64,000 nt of DNA from contig CAAGHJ010000014.1 in assembly GCA_900769635.1 (NCBI GenBank), positions 2,584 through 66,583 of the forward strand, written 5' to 3'. The position numbers and the translations under genes are program-made. Under the pieces are notes generated by a model. The model was not told where the DNA came from. It did not search any database and saw only the letters and a program-made list of their open reading frames with translations. Below, one piece after another: positions 659 to 63,673 of the stretch. How positions within the stretch are numbered: the first letter of the stretch is position 1; every line of letters begins with the position of its first letter. The stretch comes from Bacilli bacterium (GTDB taxonomy: Bacteria; Bacillota_I; Bacilli_A; RF39; UBA660).

Positions 659-685
659 ATTAATAAGTAAAAAAATATAAATTCT

Positions 686-709
686 TACCCCCCCTTAGGG
701 CCCAAAAAA
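686..709 (+). repeat. GC mini-hairpin plus A-tract motif copy (TACCCCCCCTTAGGGCCCAAAAAA)
   Basis: Lies about 22 nt upstream of the -35 of the gyrB promoter. Confidence 0.4.
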
Positions 710-731: not shown

Positions 732-760
732 TTGATTGCCCCCCAAAATTGTGATAAAAT
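732..760 (+). promoter_or_regulatory. sigma-A-like promoter (TTGATT-17-TGaTAAAAT) upstream of the topoisomerase gene
   Basis: -35/-10 hexamers with extended TG, 30 nt upstream of the RBS. Confidence 0.4.
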
Positions 761-2697: not shown

Positions 2698-2920
2698 AAT
2701 TTATTACATCTAAGTTTACATATAACAAAAAAATTATAAAATTTCCAAAAATCCCATTTTTCTCGTAATTATGACCATTTTCTCTTGAAATAACACTCCT
2801 GAAATGTAAAGTTTGTGTAAAGTATCTAGTCAAACGTATAAATAAATGATATACTGAACTAGAAATGATACAAAGAGGATAAACGTGTCATTTCATTTAA
2901 AAACGAAAGCGGGGAATAAT

Positions 2921-5422
2921 ATGGGAAAAGCGAGTAAATTTATGAAAGTATTTATAGTTATATGTATGATCATTACACAATTATCGCCTACCATTAGTGT
3001 GTTTGCAGATACAACCACTATGCAAGACGTAGACGTAAATGTTGATGTAGCAAACGATAACTATACAATTACAGCCACAGATTTAGTTGTAAATCCAGAA
3101 GAAACCTATAGTATTGATTTAGTTGCTGAATTTATATACCAAAATGGTGAAGTTATCTATGCAAACGCTAATAAACCATATACTATTCAAAATATATTGG
3201 GTAGTGAGTTATTAGCGGGATATAAAATTAGTAATTTCAGTTCTATAGTAAGTACACTAGGATTTAACAATTGGACAGCTGGTTATGCGTATCAAGAAGA
3301 AAATGGTGAAACCATTTACTATAATGGTACATATAAGTTTACAGTTACAATTAAAAATAACAAAAATGAAGAAATAAGTATAGTCGAAACAACTAATAAA
3401 ATAGAAAGTGATATAACTGAAAAAACAGGATATACATACTATGCTTATGAAACAAACGATGGTGTAGTTGGAAATATAACAAATGACCAAGAACCAATCA
3501 ATTTAGGTGAAACTACGGAACAAATAACATTATATGGAAATCTTTATGAACCAAATGATGCTCCCCATACAATCTATAAAGTAAGTGGAGCAGGATATGA
3601 TGAAAGTAGAACATATACAAACTATCAGTTATTCAATGAAGACGGGATAATAACTTATAACTTTAAAGATAAACTACCAGGAACATACACATATAATGAA
3701 GTAGTAACCCTAACAAAAGAGGACGGAACTAGTGTTTCTTATCCCAAAGTATTAAAATTTAGGTATGGAACAAATTTAGATAGCATCCTTTCAAATGGAG
3801 AATATACATTTAAAGACGGTCTACTAATAACTGAAGGTTCATATAATAGTGTAATAAAAACTCGTAAAGGTTTAGTAGATTATGTAACAAATATAATAAA
3901 TAATAGTAACTATAATGTGTCCATAGTTAACCAATCAAATTTAAATGTATATGATGAATCAGCCCTAACAACAGATGATAAATTAATAATAACATCATTA
4001 ACAGATGAAAGCTATAATGAAACTTATAATGTTATAGTAAAATACGATTATGATAATGATGGACAAGTTACATACTCTGACTTAGAAAACATTATTAATG
4101 AAAAACTAGGAAATAAAGAAGTATCAAAACAAACAAATTTAGGAGATGCATCTCAAAATCCAACTAAAGACACCATAACAAACGTCCAAAAGAAAATAGA
4201 TAATGTTACAAATATTACAGAACCAACTAGTCCACTAGAAATAACAACTTCTAGTGCAAGTGAAGTAATAAACGGAGAAGAACTACGAGTAACATACAAA
4301 TTAAACGGCAAAACAGATACAATTTCAGGAATAAATGGAACCCTAAATTACGATAAAGAAAATCTAACCCTAACAGATATTATCGTAAGTGATACCCTAT
4401 CGGGAGCCATTAATACAAATACAGGTGAATTTCAGTACGTTGGTAATATAAATAATGGCGATGTACTAACCCTTGTATTTAAAACTAAAAAACCAGTTGA
4501 TAGTACAAATATAAGTATAAATAACTTAGAAATAAATAAATACGATTATACTTATAATTTAACAAATAATTCAAACTTAACATCAAATATTAAAATAAAG
4601 AAATCAAATAATGCTTATTTAAAAACCCTAACTATTAAAGAAGCAGAAATAAATTTCCAAAAAGATGTATTTGAATACAATATAACCATACCAACTGATG
4701 TAGATAAATTAACCATAAATTATGATGCTGAAATTGGTACATCATTAATTACATATAATAGTGATGATAACGGTAACTTTAAAATAAATGAAACCAAAAC
4801 ACTATATATAACTGTTTTAGCCGAAGACAATGTTACTGAACATACTTACAAAATAAACGTAACAAAAAAACAATCAAATGATAATAATATAAATGATATT
4901 AAAACAGATAAAGGCAATTTAAATTTTGATGGAAATAAACAAAGTTATACTGTAAATGTTGATGCAAATACCGACCATTTAGATTTAAATATAGTACTTA
5001 GAAATAACAAAGCAACATACACCATACTCGGAAATAGTAACTTTAAAGCCGGATTAAACCTTGTTACTATAAGAGTAGTTGCCGAAGATGGAACAATAAA
5101 AGAGTATTATATTAGTGTAAATAAAGCATCATCAGGTGTTGAACAAGGAAATACCACAACACCCACTAATAATAATGGTAATCAAAATCCTACCCAAACT
5201 CAAAATATTGCCGAAGAAGTAGTAGAAACCAAAACTGAAGACATCCAAAAATATACAAACGTTGATGATAAAGACAAAACAAGCAAAAAAGATAAAACAA
5301 AAATTAAAGAAGAGGATGCTGGAATTTCTCATATTATAATAATTATTTTAATACTACTTGTAATTGCTGGATTAATATATCTAATATTTAAAGATGATGA
5401 GGACGAAAAAAAACAAAAATAA
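2921..5422 (+). CDS. Large secreted N/T-rich surface protein with cadherin-like beta-sandwich repeats and a C-terminal TM anchor
   Basis: N-terminal signal peptide (MGKASKFMKVFIVICMIITQLSPTISVFA). Two YKINVTKK / YYISVNKA cadherin-like modules. C-terminal hydrophobic helix plus KDDEDEKKQK tail. No LPXTG. Confidence 0.6.
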   Translation: MGKASKFMKVFIVICMIITQLSPTISVFADTTTMQDVDVNVDVANDNYTITATDLVVNPEETYSIDLVAEFIYQNGEVIYANANKPYTIQNILGSELLAGYKISNFSSIVSTLGFNNWTAGYAYQEENGETIYYNGTYKFTVTIKNNKNEEISIVETTNKIESDITEKTGYTYYAYETNDGVVGNITNDQEPINLGETTEQITLYGNLYEPNDAPHTIYKVSGAGYDESRTYTNYQLFNEDGIITYNFKDKLPGTYTYNEVVTLTKEDGTSVSYPKVLKFRYGTNLDSILSNGEYTFKDGLLITEGSYNSVIKTRKGLVDYVTNIINNSNYNVSIVNQSNLNVYDESALTTDDKLIITSLTDESYNETYNVIVKYDYDNDGQVTYSDLENIINEKLGNKEVSKQTNLGDASQNPTKDTITNVQKKIDNVTNITEPTSPLEITTSSASEVINGEELRVTYKLNGKTDTISGINGTLNYDKENLTLTDIIVSDTLSGAINTNTGEFQYVGNINNGDVLTLVFKTKKPVDSTNISINNLEINKYDYTYNLTNNSNLTSNIKIKKSNNAYLKTLTIKEAEINFQKDVFEYNITIPTDVDKLTINYDAEIGTSLITYNSDDNGNFKINETKTLYITVLAEDNVTEHTYKINVTKKQSNDNNINDIKTDKGNLNFDGNKQSYTVNVDANTDHLDLNIVLRNNKATYTILGNSNFKAGLNLVTIRVVAEDGTIKEYYISVNKASSGVEQGNTTTPTNNNGNQNPTQTQNIAEEVVETKTEDIQKYTNVDDKDKTSKKDKTKIKEEDAGISHIIIIILILLVIAGLIYLIFKDDEDEKKQK

Positions 5423-12017: not shown

Positions 12018-12046
12018 AATTTTCTCAATAAGGGAAAATTTTTTAA
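12018..12046 (+). terminator. rho-independent terminator after cotJC
   Basis: AATTTTC/GAAAATT stem followed by TTTT. Confidence 0.5.
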
Positions 12047-12076
12047 TTACCACTTCCCGTAGGGCTCACCAAAAAA
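12047..12076 (+). repeat. GC mini-hairpin plus A-tract motif copy (TTACCacttCCCgtaGGGCtcaccAAAAAA)
   Basis: Member of the recurrent motif family. Lies 3 nt upstream of the -35. Confidence 0.4.
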
Positions 12077-12079
12077 CTA

Positions 12080-12113
12080 TTGAAAATATCCCCATACTAT
12101 GATAAAATGATAT
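12080..12113 (+). promoter_or_regulatory. sigma-A-like promoter TTGAAA-17-TAAAAT
   Basis: Hexamers upstream of the 12128 gene. Confidence 0.4.
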
Positions 12114-15229: not shown

Positions 15230-16525
15230 ATGAAAAAAACACTAATGAAATTATTCACAATATGTCTTGCATTCTTAACCGTTGCACCAAGCATAGGTGC
15301 AGCTTCAAACGTACCAAGTACAATCACAGTACAGGAGCAACAAAGAACAAGTGCCTACTTAACAGGTGGAAAAGGAACAGGAGTATTATATAGGAAAGCA
15401 ACTAACGGAAACATCATTTACTGTATGACTTACGAAAGAACATCACCAGAAAACGGTATGAGCTTCAAGTTAGGTAGTGAGTTAGATGCAGGTCTAACAT
15501 ACATACTAGCAAACGGATATCCAAAAAAATCCTTTACAGGCGATAGTATGAAAGATTACTATATTACCCAAATGGCAATTTGGATATACCAAAGTGATAG
15601 CGGTCACAAAATATCAAATTTAGCAACAAAAGTAAAAAACGGAACCTATACAGGAGATGCAACTGGAACAGCAATGGCAAAACAAATTATGAACCTATAT
15701 AACGGTGCTCTAAAAGCCAAAAGTGCTGGATATGTAAAGCCAAGTTTCAGTGCTAATACAAAAAACTTAAACCTAACACTTGACGGAGATTACTATGTAT
15801 CAGAATTAGTAAAAGTAACAAGTTCAAATACAATAGATACATTTACAGTAGCAACAAATGATGCTCCCGATGGAACAATAATAACAAGTTCTAACGGAAC
15901 CAAAACCAATAACATTGCCGTAACAGATGGCTTTTATGTAAAAGTACCTGCATCAAGTGTAAAAGGCAAAACCATAAGTTTCGGTTTATCCCTAGCTACA
16001 ACAGGTGTAGTAGAAAAAGCATATCTATACCTATCAGGAAACTCATATCAAGATATGTCTGAGGCAGCAATATATCCCGAAAATACACCACTTTCAGATA
16101 ACATTACTGTAACAGCATCATCAAATGTAATTAAAATATCAAAACAAGATATAACAAGTAAAGAAGAACTACCAGGAGCAACACTAATAGTAAAAGATGA
16201 AAACGGAAATGAAATAGACAAATGGGTAAGTGGAAATGAACCACATTATATCTACAACTTAAAAGACGGAACATATACCCTAACAGAAATAGGGGCTCCT
16301 GATGGATATAAACTATCAACGGAAACAATAACCTTTGAAGTAAAAGACGGAAAAGTAACCGAAAATATAGTAATGTTCAATGAAAAGAAACCAGTAGAAA
16401 CACCAGAAGAAGTAATTGAAGTAAAGAAAACAGATTCAAGTGCCACTTTATTCTATACAGTATGCTCTTTAGTAGTTTTAGCGGGAATAGCACTAGTATA
16501 CAGATATAAAAATGCACAAAGATAA
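15230..16525 (+). CDS. Thioester-domain (TED) adhesin with a CnaB-type domain, sortase-anchored surface protein
   Basis: Signal peptide. Cys in IYCMTYERTSP and Gln in YITQMAIWIY match the TQxA(I/V)W thioester motif. YTLTEIGAPDGYKLSTETITFEV is a CnaB-type domain. C-terminal TM plus R/K tail. Confidence 0.6.
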   Translation: MKKTLMKLFTICLAFLTVAPSIGAASNVPSTITVQEQQRTSAYLTGGKGTGVLYRKATNGNIIYCMTYERTSPENGMSFKLGSELDAGLTYILANGYPKKSFTGDSMKDYYITQMAIWIYQSDSGHKISNLATKVKNGTYTGDATGTAMAKQIMNLYNGALKAKSAGYVKPSFSANTKNLNLTLDGDYYVSELVKVTSSNTIDTFTVATNDAPDGTIITSSNGTKTNNIAVTDGFYVKVPASSVKGKTISFGLSLATTGVVEKAYLYLSGNSYQDMSEAAIYPENTPLSDNITVTASSNVIKISKQDITSKEELPGATLIVKDENGNEIDKWVSGNEPHYIYNLKDGTYTLTEIGAPDGYKLSTETITFEVKDGKVTENIVMFNEKKPVETPEEVIEVKKTDSSATLFYTVCSLVVLAGIALVYRYKNAQR

Positions 16526-25221: not shown

Positions 25222-25307
25222 CTGACTAAACACATTATAGCACACATTCCCCTTAAAATACAAGAGAAAATGCAAAAGTTTACAAAAAATTTACACTTTA
25301 ACACTGA

Positions 25308-25319
25308 CCCTATCGGGGG
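25308..25319 (+). repeat. CCCTATCGGGGG mini-hairpin (variant of the GC-hairpin motif family). Second copy at 38089-38101
   Basis: Identical 12-mer in two intergenic regions of an AT-rich genome. Confidence 0.35.
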
Positions 25320-25422
25320 CAAATACCCAAAATTATCAAAACAAAAAATATCATTAACAAATAGTAAATAATCAAACAAATAAACAAAAACTGTGATATA
25401 ATGAAAGAAAGGAGTGTGAAAA

Positions 25423-40348: not shown

Positions 40349-40461
40349 AATTGGATATGTTTGTAAGACCTCTTAGTTGTTCATACAACCGCACTAAAAA
40401 GGTATAAACCATATAGGTACCTTCAAGGCGAGTCTTATAATAAAATGTAAGGAGGTAAGAA
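40349..40461 (+). promoter_or_regulatory. Putative L21 ribosomal-protein leader / promoter region
   Basis: 113-nt structured, GC-enriched leader immediately upstream of rplU. Firmicutes carry an L21 leader here. Confidence 0.3.
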
Positions 40462-43786: not shown

Positions 43787-43806
43787 AAAAAAACCCTTTC
43801 GGGTTT
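43787..43806 (-). terminator. Terminator for the minus-strand tRNA-Ser
   Basis: Mirror hairpin AAACCC-TTTC-GGGTTT, preceded on the + strand by an A-run. Confidence 0.5.
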
Positions 43807-49635: not shown

Positions 49636-49748
49636 TCTCTTTCTTTTTTAATTTCTATTAAGACCAATATAAATATCAAATCAAAAACTTTTCTAACCCA
49701 TTTCTCCTAATCTATGGTATAATAAAATTAACAAATAAAAAACAAGTA

Positions 49749-49775
49749 TTAACCCCTAGTAGGGCCAAAAAGAAA
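49749..49775 (+). repeat. GC mini-hairpin plus A-tract motif copy (TTAACCCCtagtaGGGCCAAAAAGAAAA)
   Basis: Lies between an extended -10 (49714-49722) and the RBS, so probably in the 5'UTR. Confidence 0.4.
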
Positions 49776-49788
49776 AGGTGGTAATAGT

Positions 49789-54280: not shown

Positions 54281-54304
54281 GTACCCCCCTTAGGGCCAAA
54301 AAAA
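54281..54304 (+). repeat. GC mini-hairpin plus A-tract motif copy (GTACCCCCCTTAGGGCCAAAAAAAA)
   Basis: Lies about 45 nt upstream of the extended -10 for recD2. Preceded by a second CCCCTTA. Confidence 0.4.
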
Positions 54305-57909: not shown

Positions 57910-58501
57910 ATATATCTTTTAAAGAAAAAACTTTTCTTTCTTCAATTTCTTTAATCCAAAATCCATATCCAAGAATAAATATTTAATAATAATAGCCAAC
58001 ATCAATGCCTAACAATAATAATCAAAATTAAATATCAAAAAAAGCTATAAAAGGTAGTATATGATACAAATTCCATTTCGGATACAACAATATAAAAAGT
58101 AATAATATGTAAAAAAAAACTAAAAACTAAGTCATAAACAATTTTCAATTAATAACTAGGTCTTATTGAAGTTTTTCAAGTATGAAAGCCCAAAAAATAA
58201 AACCTAGTTTTTTTGACTATCTTCAAAAAATTATACGCACTATTTTTCAATTATATATATGTATAAAAAAAATCACTATTTTTCTTCCAATATCTTACTA
58301 TTCCTTATATTATCTATGCTAATTCCATTATTAAAAATATAACCTAATAATATAAATGTATAATATTATCTATTGTATCAAAATTAAGTATTATAAATAT
58401 CAAAAAAATAACAAAAAAACACTTGACACAATTAATAATAGTGTGATAAAATGCAAATGAACTTGACCGGCAACTTCAAAAAAAATAAACCATTATAGGG
58501 G

Positions 58502-59656
58502 GTGATAAAAATGTATAAAGCATACAAATTTAGATTATATCCAACTAACAATCAAAAAAACACAATAAATCAAACATTCGGTAATTTACGTTTCATATAT
58601 AACTATTATGTAAACAAAATTACAACCCAAGGTTATAAATCAGTCTATAACAATTACAATGATTGCGAAAAAGAATTACTACATAAGTATCCATTTCTAG
58701 AACAAACAGAAAAAAATCTTATTAAAAAGGTTCTTTATAGATTAGACGATAACTATAAGAAAAATCAATATAAGGGAATAAGCACTATAAAATACAAAAG
58801 CAAGTATGAAAAAAATAGCTATACAATTCCCGCATCCTATACTTATAATAAAGATTTAAAAGTCAAAAAATGTAATATAATTCCAAACTTGCCCAATCAA
58901 ACTCTTGAATTACCACAAATTGGTTCTCTAAAAATACGAGGCTATAAGAATAAACTCAAAGTAGTTGGTGAAATAAAAAATGTTACCATTACCAGAGAAC
59001 AAACAGGTAAATATTACATCATCATTCTTTGCAACATCCCAAATTTCCCAAAAGTAAACCCAAACACCATTATCGGCCTTGATATAGGTATAAAAAAACT
59101 AGTAACAACCTCGGACGGCCTAGTATATACCAATAATAAATATATAAATCAATATGAAACCAAAATAAAAAGAGAACAATATAAACTCTCTAAGAAACAA
59201 AAAGGCAGTAAAAATTATTATAAAAATATAAATAGATTAAATATTCTTTATGCCAAACTCAGAAATGCCCGAAAATATACAACTCACAAAATAACTAAGG
59301 AAATAACCGATAATTATGATATCATAGTTACAGAAACTTTAACCACAAAGAAAATGATAATGAACAAAGATAGTAACCTATCAAAGAATATAGCAGATGC
59401 AACATTCAGTGAAATAATAAGAGAACTAGAATATAAATCCAAAGAAAAAGGCAAATATCTCTATAAAATAAAAGCATATTACCCATCAAGCCAATTATGC
59501 AGCATTTGTGAAAACAGAGCCAAAGAGTATAAAGACTTAACTAAAAGAGTGTATGATTGCAGTTATTGTCAAAATACTCTTGATAGAGATATTAATGCTA
59601 GCATTAATATAATGTTTGAGGGACTAAAAATCTATTTAAAAGACCAGTTCTCATAA
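58502..59656 (+). CDS. tnpB: TnpB (OrfB) RNA-guided endonuclease of the IS605/IS1341 family
   Basis: N-terminal YKFRLYPT OrfB_IS605 domain, RuvC-like split motifs, C-terminal zinc finger CSIC...CSYC. Confidence 0.85.
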   Translation: MIKMYKAYKFRLYPTNNQKNTINQTFGNLRFIYNYYVNKITTQGYKSVYNNYNDCEKELLHKYPFLEQTEKNLIKKVLYRLDDNYKKNQYKGISTIKYKSKYEKNSYTIPASYTYNKDLKVKKCNIIPNLPNQTLELPQIGSLKIRGYKNKLKVVGEIKNVTITREQTGKYYIIILCNIPNFPKVNPNTIIGLDIGIKKLVTTSDGLVYTNNKYINQYETKIKREQYKLSKKQKGSKNYYKNINRLNILYAKLRNARKYTTHKITKEITDNYDIIVTETLTTKKMIMNKDSNLSKNIADATFSEIIRELEYKSKEKGKYLYKIKAYYPSSQLCSICENRAKEYKDLTKRVYDCSYCQNTLDRDINASINIMFEGLKIYLKDQFS

Positions 59657-59800
59657 TTAATAATATAAAATATGTACGGTAGCACCTATCGGAATTTATG
59701 TCTGTGGACGAAATTATAAATAATTTCTATGAAGCAGAAAATCCATATAGCTATTTAGTCATTCAATACGTCTTATTAACACCCTTATAGGGAATTTTCA
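59560..59800 (+). ncRNA. Putative omega-RNA (reRNA) of TnpB, spanning the tnpB 3' end and the right-end sequence
   Basis: Inferred from known TnpB biology. Structured non-coding tail ending in the hairpin CACCCTTATAGGG. Confidence 0.3.
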
Positions 59801-63546: not shown

Positions 63547-63578
63547 CGGTTAGTCTTTTTAATATAAAATATTCATAA

Positions 63579-63609
63579 GTACCAACCCCTGTAGGGCAAA
63601 ATAAAAAAG
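63579..63609 (+). repeat. GC mini-hairpin plus A-tract motif copy (GTACCaaCCCCtgtaGGGCAAAATAAAAAA)
   Basis: Lies 12 nt upstream of a perfect TTGCAA-17-TATAAT promoter. Confidence 0.4.
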
Positions 63610-63621
63610 TTTCACATATCA

Positions 63622-63650
63622 ATTGCAAAAAACATCGAAATTTGTTATAA
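63622..63650 (+). promoter_or_regulatory. Consensus sigma-A promoter TTGCAA-17-TGtTATAAT
   Basis: Hexamers with extended -10. Confidence 0.5.
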
Positions 63651-63673
63651 TACTAATATAGGAAGTGATAGGG

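Follow-up and report, generated by a model that had tools for sequence, protein, structure and literature searches.

A 64,000-nucleotide stretch of DNA (hereafter the window) on contig CAAGHJ010000014.1 of an uncultured gut Bacilli bacterium carries eight dispersed intergenic copies, one of them a probable member, of a miniature GC-rich palindrome with an unpaired 5′ tag. This work finds that copies at unrelated loci possess near-identical cores, and that in some strains two copies bracket a transporter gene. Based on these findings, we tentatively propose, with less than even confidence, that the copies form a lineage-specific family of miniature tagged GC palindromes, a dispersed intergenic repeat resembling the repetitive extragenic palindromes (REPs) and serving as a recombination seam. 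An initial annotation of the window had noticed five of the sites and offered three explanations, namely a miniature palindromic repeat, a transcription-factor operator defining a regulon, and a small structured RNA. The observation itself is confirmed, as every one of the five sites lies where it had been placed; among the explanations the palindromic repeat holds up, while the operator does not and the structured RNA is weak.

Results

A tagged mini-palindrome recurs between genes

The repeat unit consists of a 5′ tag, [G/T]T[A/G][A/C]C, followed by 0-4 nt, a run of three to seven C, a loop of 3-5 nt ending in TA, and a GGG arm, and this layout is found in all eight copies when they are aligned on the GGG arm (Table 1). 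The loop ends in TA in every copy and the GGG arm is followed by C in most of them, while the tag is TTACC in three copies, GTACC in two, TTAAC in two and TTGCC in one. The unit is about 16-24 nt long, its arms pair over 3-4 bp, and the tag, which is neither GTAG nor CGTC, stays unpaired in all eight copies. Because CCC-loop-GGG reads the same on both strands, orientation is set by the tag and the loop, and by this measure six copies lie on the + strand and two are inverted (25304-25323 and 38073-38094).

Table 1. Positions of the repeat copies and of two other sequence features in the window
Feature	Position	Strand	Sequence or parts	Setting
s1	685..703	+	TTACC-CCCCC-TTA-GGG-CCC	27 nt past the stop of a MiaB-like gene, upstream of the gyrB promoter
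Half-motif	736..744	+	TTGCCCCCC (tag and C-run, no GGG arm)	In the gyrB promoter spacer; only such intergenic case without loop-TA-GGG
s2	12047..12070	+	TTACC-ACTT-CCC-GTA-GGGC-TCACC	Between an AT-rich terminator (~12018-12045) and the GH31 promoter (12080-12108)
s7	25304..25323	- (inverted)	TTGCC-CCC-GATA-GGGT-CAG	Divergent region between tRNA-Arg (-) and a LiaF-like gene (+)
s6	38073..38094	- (inverted)	TTACC-CCC-GATA-GGGC-AATTTT	Begins 4 nt past the stop of the last pilus-operon gene
s3	49749..49766	+	TTAAC-CCC-TAGTA-GGGCC	5′ untranslated region of the 444-aa gene, between a TG-extended -10 (~49716-49724) and the ribosome-binding site
s4	54281..54297	+	GTACC-CCCC-TTA-GGGCC	Downstream of the terminator of a NUDIX gene, upstream of the recD2 promoter
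s8 (probable member)	59776..59792	+	TTAAC-A-CCC-TTATA-GGG, then AATTTTCAAAAAA	Between the conserved region 3′ of tnpB and the T2SSF promoter
s5	63579..63597	+	GTACC-AA-CCCC-TGTA-GGGC	Between the terminator of the upstream gene (63551-63563) and the SH3/dockerin gene promoter (63623-63651)
A-tract beside s5	63598..63608	+	AAAATAAAAAA	Part of the downstream promoter module, not of the repeat

The arrangement is strongly enriched. Over the whole window, CCC-N3-GGGC, CCC-N4-GGGC and CCC-N5-GGGC match six, five and seven times against about one expected, a count reached by no shuffle. In the intergenic DNA, delimited by crude gene calling (38 regions, 4,415 nt), CCC-N3-5-GGG occurs 10 times compared with 0.56 ± 0.73 expected from 1,000 dinucleotide shuffles (maximum 4), so that the recurrence suspected by the initial annotation is borne out against a shuffled background; the reverse arrangement, GGG-N3-5-CCC, does not occur in these regions. 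Eight of the ten intergenic matches are the motif, and the other two belong to ordinary convergent terminators (43764, aaaCCCgaaaGGGttttttt, with its partner at 43794). The tag joined to a C-run ([GT]T[AG][AC]C-N0-4-CCC) occurs nine times between genes against 0.4 expected, and eight of the nine continue as loop-TA-GGG. A copy is present in half of the 16 intergenic regions longer than 100 nt. Matches to CCC..GGG within genes (4404, 11205, 11237, 24411, 34563, 39752 and 57346) have neither the tag nor the flanking features and look like chance. All copies are single and at least 3.8 kb apart, and neither terminal inverted repeats nor flanking duplications were seen around single copies.

Four further sites had been listed in the initial annotation as related variants. 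Those at 25308 and 38089 are full inverted members (TTGCCCCCGATAGGGT and TTACCCCCGATAGGGC on the - strand) and that at 59782 fits the pattern (TTAACACCCTTATAGGGA), whereas the one at 58490 (CCATTATAGGGGG) is the ribosome-binding site of tnpB.

Copies at unrelated loci share their cores

Pairs of copies at distant sites are close to identical. The 16-mer TACCCCCCTTAGGGCC stands without a mismatch in both s1 and s4, 14 of 16 positions agree between s6 and s7, and a true terminator at L007:3780 has the same core, CCCCTAGTAGGG, as s3; in each of these pairs the flanks are unrelated. At the level of sequence, the copies are thereby shown to be related by descent and not by convergence.

All comparisons were made with metagenome assemblies, which cover each of the eight sites in 2-13 strains. 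The CCC and GGG arms never vary within the species, and it is the loops, the lengths of the C-run and A-run and the bases after GGGC that do. The C-run of s1 is C6 or C7, and reads CCCTCC in one strain; the loop base of s2 is G, C or A and its tail varies as well, with CCC and GGG constant; the loop varies between C and T in s6 and between TGTA and GTA in s5; and s3 is invariant in 11 strains. No structural variation was found in the strains compared at s1-s4 and s6-s8.

The family has a narrow distribution. In the DNA around gyrB (±10 kb) of 79 related species, whose gyrB is 69-84% identical and which amount to 1.36 Mb, no species has the motif upstream of gyrB. CCC-N1-3-TAGGG is limited there to a scattered handful, about 0.4 per 100 kb, versus about a dozen in the 64-kb window, and GC mini-hairpins of every class are 4-5 times commoner in this species than in the relatives. 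A look-alike just downstream of gyrB in one related species (L011:12415-12455, TATTACGGCAGTCCCTTAGGGATAATAAAAAATAGTTGACA) combines a TTAC tag, a CCC-TTA-GGG palindrome, an A-tract and a -35, and is the only such case in the 1.36 Mb. In metagenomes the 16-mer TACCCCCCTTAGGGCC is confined to the s1 and s4 loci of this species, its 29 other matches being random GC-rich DNA, and it is absent from the viral contigs scanned. The 19 kb flanking the window contain no further tagged copy, but one true terminator with a family-like core (L001:4106, CTACCCCCCATAGGGTAGTTTTT).

Three sister lineages, L152, L153 and L154, were traced through RecD2 homologues (92%, 87% and 83% identity). At the recD2 site (s4), L152 keeps the palindrome but has lost the tag (acaactCCCATAGGGAACCCCCAAAAAT), L153 has lost the GGG arm (CCCATAAAAAAAT) and L154 lacks the copy, and the recD2 promoter is kept in the sister lineages despite this erosion. 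At s5, L152 reads GTACCAG-CCCCC-AATA-GGGC, with tag and arms kept around a new loop and better conserved than the 25 nt to their left; s8 is invariant in L152 and L153, like the rest of its intergenic region. As judged from these alignments, the family does not extend beyond this species and its sisters, and its copies are shown to decay over time.

Two copies bracket a variable ABC-transporter gene

In the window, s5 is the empty form of an insertion site. In three separate metagenome assemblies a 2.2-kb segment, which carries a single gene for an ABC transporter (588 aa, - strand), sits exactly in s5 (L133:13722-15986, L134:13722-15870 and L140, likewise at window 63579-63597). The segment is bounded by GTACCAGCCCCGTAGG on the left and by TTACCAACCCCTGTAGG, adjoining GC, on the right; at the left junction cataaGTACCAGCCCCGTAGG passes into (C/T)TTTTAT, and at the right junction cttcTTACCAACCCCTGTAGG passes into GCAAAATAAAAAAG and the promoter. 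On either side of the insert there is thus one copy of tag and palindrome, the two being in direct orientation and different at three positions.

The coding strand of the transporter gene has 10% C and 32% T, versus 16-25% C in the neighbouring genes, and by composition the gene is foreign. Its variants at 94-95% amino-acid identity are widespread, one of them being named as a protein of a 'Tenericutes bacterium' metagenome-assembled genome (MAG), and the genome of a homologue (L168) is of ordinary composition (C 9.6%, G 18%); RecD2, by contrast, has at most 59% identity outside the sister lineages. DNA homology to one genome of another species that carries such a variant (87% identity) extends no further than 47 nt upstream of the gene and 3 nt past its stop, and the motif is absent from the ends of the gene in that species. 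A plasmid search with the gene returned only distant ABC genes. The non-coding ends of the cassette carry CGTATGTAAAA repeats, both direct and inverted.

Strains without the cassette have three alleles at s5, namely GTACC-AA-CCCC-TGTA-GGGC in the window and ten other loci, GTACC-AG-CCCC-TGTA-GGGC in four loci, and GTACC-AG-CCCC-GTA-GGGC in five. Recombination between the left copy (AG, without the additional T) and the right copy (AA, with it) is expected to give exactly these three products, depending on where in the repeat the crossover falls. With three differences between the two copies, and with both internal variants recurring in the empty alleles, a target-site duplication is unlikely as their source, and was rejected. 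Most likely, to judge from the alleles, a copy arrived with the incoming DNA and recombined with the resident copy, after which the transporter gene would have been lost several times via recombination between the two. So far as aligned alleles can show it, the two copies are the substrates of recombination that adds and removes a gene. Among the eight sites, this is the only motif-bounded cassette in the strains compared.

The A-run belongs to the downstream promoters

A run of A follows the palindrome at several sites, and had been included in the consensus of the initial annotation. This part of the consensus is not borne out. Promoters that lack the motif (those of the genes that start at 15230, 22775, 40462, 47821 and 58502) have equally prominent runs of A5-A7 before the -35. 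Beside s1, the A6 run at 704-709 is part of the upstream A-tract of the gyrB promoter (732-760, with a TG-extended -10). In the cassette-bearing strains the A-tract is found beside the right-hand copy, at the SH3 promoter, and what follows the left-hand copy is a T-run. The position typical of UP elements, A-tracts at about -40 to -60 of sigma-70 promoters, is taken by the A-run only, independently of the GC palindrome. The A-run is a general promoter feature and not part of the element, and it appears to follow the copies because these lie between a terminator and the A-tract of the next promoter.

The close association with promoters could nevertheless mean that the copies are promoter elements, either binding sites for a protein or rigid GC/A-tract junctions at the edge of the UP region, that tune or insulate the promoter, which is the operator idea of the initial annotation. 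A sigma-70-like promoter with a TG-extended -10 follows seven of the eight copies, which abut its A-tract (found by prediction for s1, s2 and s5, and by eye for s4, s6, s7 and s8; the s3 promoter lies upstream of the copy), and the invariance of the arms within the species, as well as the conservation of the s5 tag and arms in L152, would agree with a bound site. However, the spacing between the arms ranges over 3-5 nt and the distance from the GGG arm to the -35 over about 18-45 nt without helical phasing, so that the variable position relative to the promoter, already remarked in the initial annotation, is upheld; two copies are inverted and one, in the 5′ untranslated region, lies downstream of the transcription start. 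Furthermore, the motif is missing at half of the comparable promoters, the left cassette copy has no adjoining promoter, and in the sister lineages the recD2 promoter outlives its copy. The genes downstream of the copies are gyrB, GH31, an unknown gene together with a PD-(D/E)XK nuclease, recD2, the SH3/dockerin gene, the LiaF-like gene by tRNA-Arg, the pilus gene T2SSF and a gene for an unknown 230-aa protein, and they have no common function. Therefore, a regulon defined by the motif is not supported, and a role as promoter element is unlikely.

The copies fold weakly and are not intrinsic terminators

The single-strand fold of seven of the eight copies has an energy of -1.7 to -4 kcal/mol, no better than that of shuffles; a strong fold is predicted for s6 alone, when it is read on the + strand (-9.7 kcal/mol, z = -3.1). 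A terminator scan reported no copy on the + strand and only s3 on the - strand, with three G-T pairs. The hairpin is followed by an A-run or mixed sequence and not by a U-tract, in agreement with the earlier remark that neither strand has the layout of an intrinsic terminator, and geometry, energy and position together led to the rejection of this reading of the copies. The same CCC-loop-GGG core does serve real terminators of this genome (at 43764 and L001:4106), but the motif copies have no T-run, have stems of 3-4 bp and also occur in divergent regions and in a 5′ untranslated region. No copy matches an Rfam family at the gathering threshold, and there is no match at E<=1 around s3 and s4 or at E<=5 around s8; a preQ1-like, boxB-like or other known RNA was rejected on these grounds. 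The small structured RNA that had been suggested is accordingly a weak candidate, with folds like those of shuffles at seven sites, no Rfam match and two copies in divergent promoter regions.

At s3 (window 49753-49787), two pairings are open to the C-run, one with the GGG arm of the copy itself and one with the ribosome-binding site of the 444-aa gene (AAGGUGGU), and the minimum-energy fold is the latter. According to this predicted fold, the pairing may have a translational effect specific to s3.

A function in the upstream transcript, as a back-up terminator devoid of a U-tract, a protective hairpin at the 3′-end or a C-rich Rho-entry site that keeps transcription from running on into the next operon, would account for s1 and s6, which are the only hairpins after their upstream genes, s6 with its strong fold. 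It could also draw on the family-like hairpins that do have a T-run and look like true terminators (L001:4106 and the left copy of the ABC cassette), and on the pairing of the s3 C-run with the ribosome-binding site. Yet such a function would leave most copies with the stability of shuffled sequence and with an A-run where a U-run is needed, and without an Rfam family; it would be redundant at s2, s4 and s5, each of which is preceded by a separate canonical terminator, and it has no upstream gene to act upon, on either strand, at s7 and the right-hand cassette copy, both in divergent regions. We therefore regard an RNA-level role as improbable.

A dedicated attachment site and other variable slots

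The cassette in s5 also allows a more specific reading, in which the copies are attachment sites, each the core of a hairpin-dependent integration and excision system comparable with integron attC or with the single-strand recombination of IS200 and REP elements, whose putative recombinase would be encoded elsewhere. The two non-identical copies that bound the cassette look as if they came from a resident and an incoming site and not from target-site duplication, the transporter gene is foreign by composition, and all copies are located at transcription-unit boundaries. Against this, a single cassette was found at the eight sites in the 2-13 strains compared at each, the empty alleles reveal three crossover positions within the repeat, which is typical of homology or slippage and not of a site-specific recombinase with a fixed cut, no recombinase is encoded in the cassette or the window, and the other cassette slot is flanked by ordinary terminators. 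Dedicated attachment sites are thus quite unlikely. In its fullest form this reading makes the tagged mini-palindrome the recognition core of an undescribed hairpin-dependent cassette exchange, wherein foreign genes with one copy would land at resident copies and later be excised by a putative trans-acting single-strand recombinase; we give this, too, a low probability.

The other slot lies ~9 kb upstream of the window, between ABC-transporter and amidase genes (L001:230-1320, L002:1180-1300, L006:1-1290, L007:640-800). It contains nothing, a D12 methyltransferase, or an N4/N6 methyltransferase with DpnII, and the two borders of its insert are allelic versions of a single terminator, with CTTAGTTCTTTTTA in common. 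A further insertion of 1.7 kb in some strains (window 38884-38988; L145/L147:3694-5530) encodes a helix-turn-helix (HTH) repressor, a TM2-domain protein and a PASTA/Ltp lipoprotein; both of its junctions lie at terminator T-runs with no motif copy involved, and it is probably a prophage remnant.

Base composition and host

The gyrB protein of the window occurs unchanged in hundreds of human-gut metagenome assemblies, among them contigs of 1.28 Mb (ERZ28753283 contig_4946) and 1.38 Mb (ERZ28760744 contig_4609), and in GenBank MAGs labelled 'uncultured Bacilli bacterium'; it is listed in 774 blocks of the metagenome collection. Nearly all genes of the window are on its + strand, which has 42% A, 17.8% C, 14.5% G and 25.5% T. 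C thus exceeds G on the sense, leading strand, while the 79 related species (L008-L086) have C ~10%, G ~18% and T ~32%. The sister lineages L152-L154 share the excess of C (C 19-20%, G 12.5-14.5%) and retain the gene order, and the skew looks like a lineage-specific T-to-C shift on the coding strand. In keeping with it, runs of at least four C are abundant, and C-runs form the majority of the ~190 runs of at least four C or G in the window; the earlier judgement that runs of 4-7 C or G are unlikely by chance is therefore right for G-runs, which are rare, and wrong for C-runs.

The possibility that there is no element at all, the copies having arisen independently from the C-rich sense strand with selection merely pairing stray G-runs, takes up the abundance of C-runs on the + strand, the pairing with CCC of each intergenic GGG outside ribosome-binding sites and the excess of GC mini-hairpins of all classes over the relatives, but it leaves unexplained the conserved unpaired tag, the loops always ending in TA, the exact 16-mer and 14/16 identities between unlinked sites and the duplicated core at the cassette, and is very improbable.

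The gyrB gene lies outside any dnaA-dnaN-recF-gyrB-gyrA cluster, its neighbours are shared with none of the related species, and no gene order around it is common to the species of the window and any of the 79. The 845-aa open reading frame (ORF) right after it (window 2885-5422) is not gyrA; its sole Pfam match is Cadherin-like. A ribosomal protein L21 leader (Rfam RF00559, 43.6 bits) is located at window 40377-40445, upstream of the L21-Prp-L27 operon.

The tnpB locus

The initial annotation had raised the possibility that the repeat derives from the ends of an IS605-type element. An IS605-type tnpB (58502-59656; region 58423-59775) with no tnpA lies in the window, and its position does not change among the strains seen or in sister lineages (RecD2 83-92%). 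Its own promoter is near consensus (TTGACA-18-TAAAAT, TG-extended). Hardly any variation is seen in the ~120 nt past its stop (GTACGGTAGCACCTATCGGAATTTATGTCTGTGGACGAAATT...), a stretch with no Rfam match, whereas the sequence upstream of the promoter is scrambled. From this pattern of conservation, tnpB looks like a domesticated gene with a conserved guide-RNA scaffold beside the pilus gene T2SSF, and s8 may instead be part of the TnpB guide-RNA region. A left-end hairpin at 58490 was rejected, as the sequence is the tnpB ribosome-binding site (GGGGGTGAT) and is not kept as a palindrome in the sister lineages. The palindromic repeat is thus the best supported of the earlier proposals, through its near-identical cores at unrelated loci, unpaired tag, restriction to one lineage, turnover and the two copies that bracket a variable gene, but its derivation from an IS605 left end falls away. 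Upstream of the tnpB promoter lies an unusually long gene-free A-rich stretch of ~590 nt (window 57910-58420), which is highly divergent in sequence and length between the sister lineages and in which a 34-aa ORF is called in some assemblies.

Discussion

The portion of the genome read here amounts to ~83 kb (the window and 19 kb of flanks) of 1.3 Mb. Based on it, we propose that the copies would sit in a dispensable seam between the terminator of the previous gene and the A-tract of the next promoter, where insertions are tolerated, and that they could spread and recombine with each other via transient single-stranded or hairpin DNA. Two agents could be responsible: (i) a trans-acting HUH/Y1-type enzyme, as for REP sequences, or (ii) short-repeat recombination and replication slippage, stimulated by the palindrome; for the deletions, the three variable crossover points favour short-repeat recombination. 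Effects on neighbouring genes would be incidental, such as a weak transcriptional roadblock, or a masked ribosome-binding site at s3.

Several observations weigh against this proposal of a REP-like recombination seam. The copies are singletons and not the head-to-head dimers typical of REPs, and no gene for a Y1 transposase or a REP-associated tyrosine transposase (RAYT) was seen in ~83 kb of genome (the window and ~10 kb flanks), where tnpB is the sole gene related to insertion sequences. With just two occurrences of the 16-mer per genome in the metagenome scan, a recent burst of identical copies has not taken place, and the copy number, about one per 10 kb, is estimated from 83 kb only, to which the 19 kb of flanks added none. 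The stems, at 3-4 bp and with a stability at seven of the eight sites not above that of shuffles, fall below the 5-13 bp of REP families (PMC3733652). The constancy of the arms within the species, and of s3 across 11 strains, could also come from a selected function. Finally, the upstream slot is bounded by ordinary terminators, and recombination at any small hairpin may be general and not specific to the motif.

Among described families, the REPs come closest to the present repeat. Known REPs are hot spots for rearrangement and for the insertion of foreign DNA, and have been described chiefly from Proteobacteria. The elements reported here resemble them as short, lineage-restricted, intergenic GC-rich palindromes with a conserved, tetranucleotide-like unpaired tag at one end, in this case KTAC(C), and sub-types with variable loops. 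Members of the REP superfamily are palindromes of 20-40 bp with an unpaired GTAG (GT[AG]G) or CGTC tag and stems of 5-13 bp, are often arranged as dimers and in some cases come with a RAYT transposase (PMC3733652), and the survey never mentions Firmicutes (PMC3733652). The present copies, eight between genes in ~83 kb, differ in that they have stems of 3-4 instead of at least 5 bp, a unit of ~16-24 nt, another tag and a low-GC Bacilli host, and form neither the head-to-head nor the tail-to-tail dimers of bacterial interspersed mosaic elements (BIMEs) and REP doublets forming hairpins (REPINs). Therefore, the elements are best called REP-like in their working, a miniature variant but not a member, as they depart from the REPs in stem length, dimer organisation and tag sequence.

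Other known systems resemble the family in part. The GC clusters of yeast and other AT-rich mitochondria are lineage-specific, mobile or recombinogenic, and tied to deletions and rearrangements; they are likewise small GC-rich palindromic islands scattered in AT-rich intergenic DNA, but are organellar, eukaryotic, 30-40 bp or more in length and differently flanked, with no sequence relationship to the copies. As with integron attC, a gene lies between two related imperfect palindromic sites and exists in cassette-present and cassette-absent forms; however, the R′′/L′′/L′/R′ boxes, an integrase, attI and an array are all missing, the site is 17-19 nt and not 57-141 nt long, and the crossover points vary. 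Members of the IS200/IS605 family have subterminal hairpins and a 5′ tetranucleotide target such as TTAC, and the tnpB of the window has a family-like palindrome 3′ to it (59776-59792). The copies differ from such ends, and from palindrome-associated transposable elements (PATEs), in that the left 'hairpin' is the tnpB ribosome-binding site, tnpB is fixed in strains and sister lineages under its own promoter without tnpA, and the copies are not paired as ends. Miniature inverted-repeat transposable elements (MITEs), with 50-500 bp, are far longer than the ~20-nt unit, which has no terminal inverted repeats and no target-site duplication around single copies.

In conclusion, if the proposed reading is true, a very common uncultured bacterium of the human gut possesses an unusually small version of the REP-type tagged palindrome, together with a natural series of strains in which the palindrome would be the exact joint where a horizontally acquired transporter gene was gained and repeatedly lost. 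If the cassette-exchange reading were true instead, the copies would be dispersed 'landing pads' between terminators and promoters in a lineage of small-genome gut Bacilli. The tempting inference of a DNA-metabolism regulon is removed, and annotation pipelines should score the copies neither as operators nor as terminators. Under the reading proposed here, it would become directly testable how gut bacteria with small genomes gain and shed individual genes when they have no classical mobile-element machinery.

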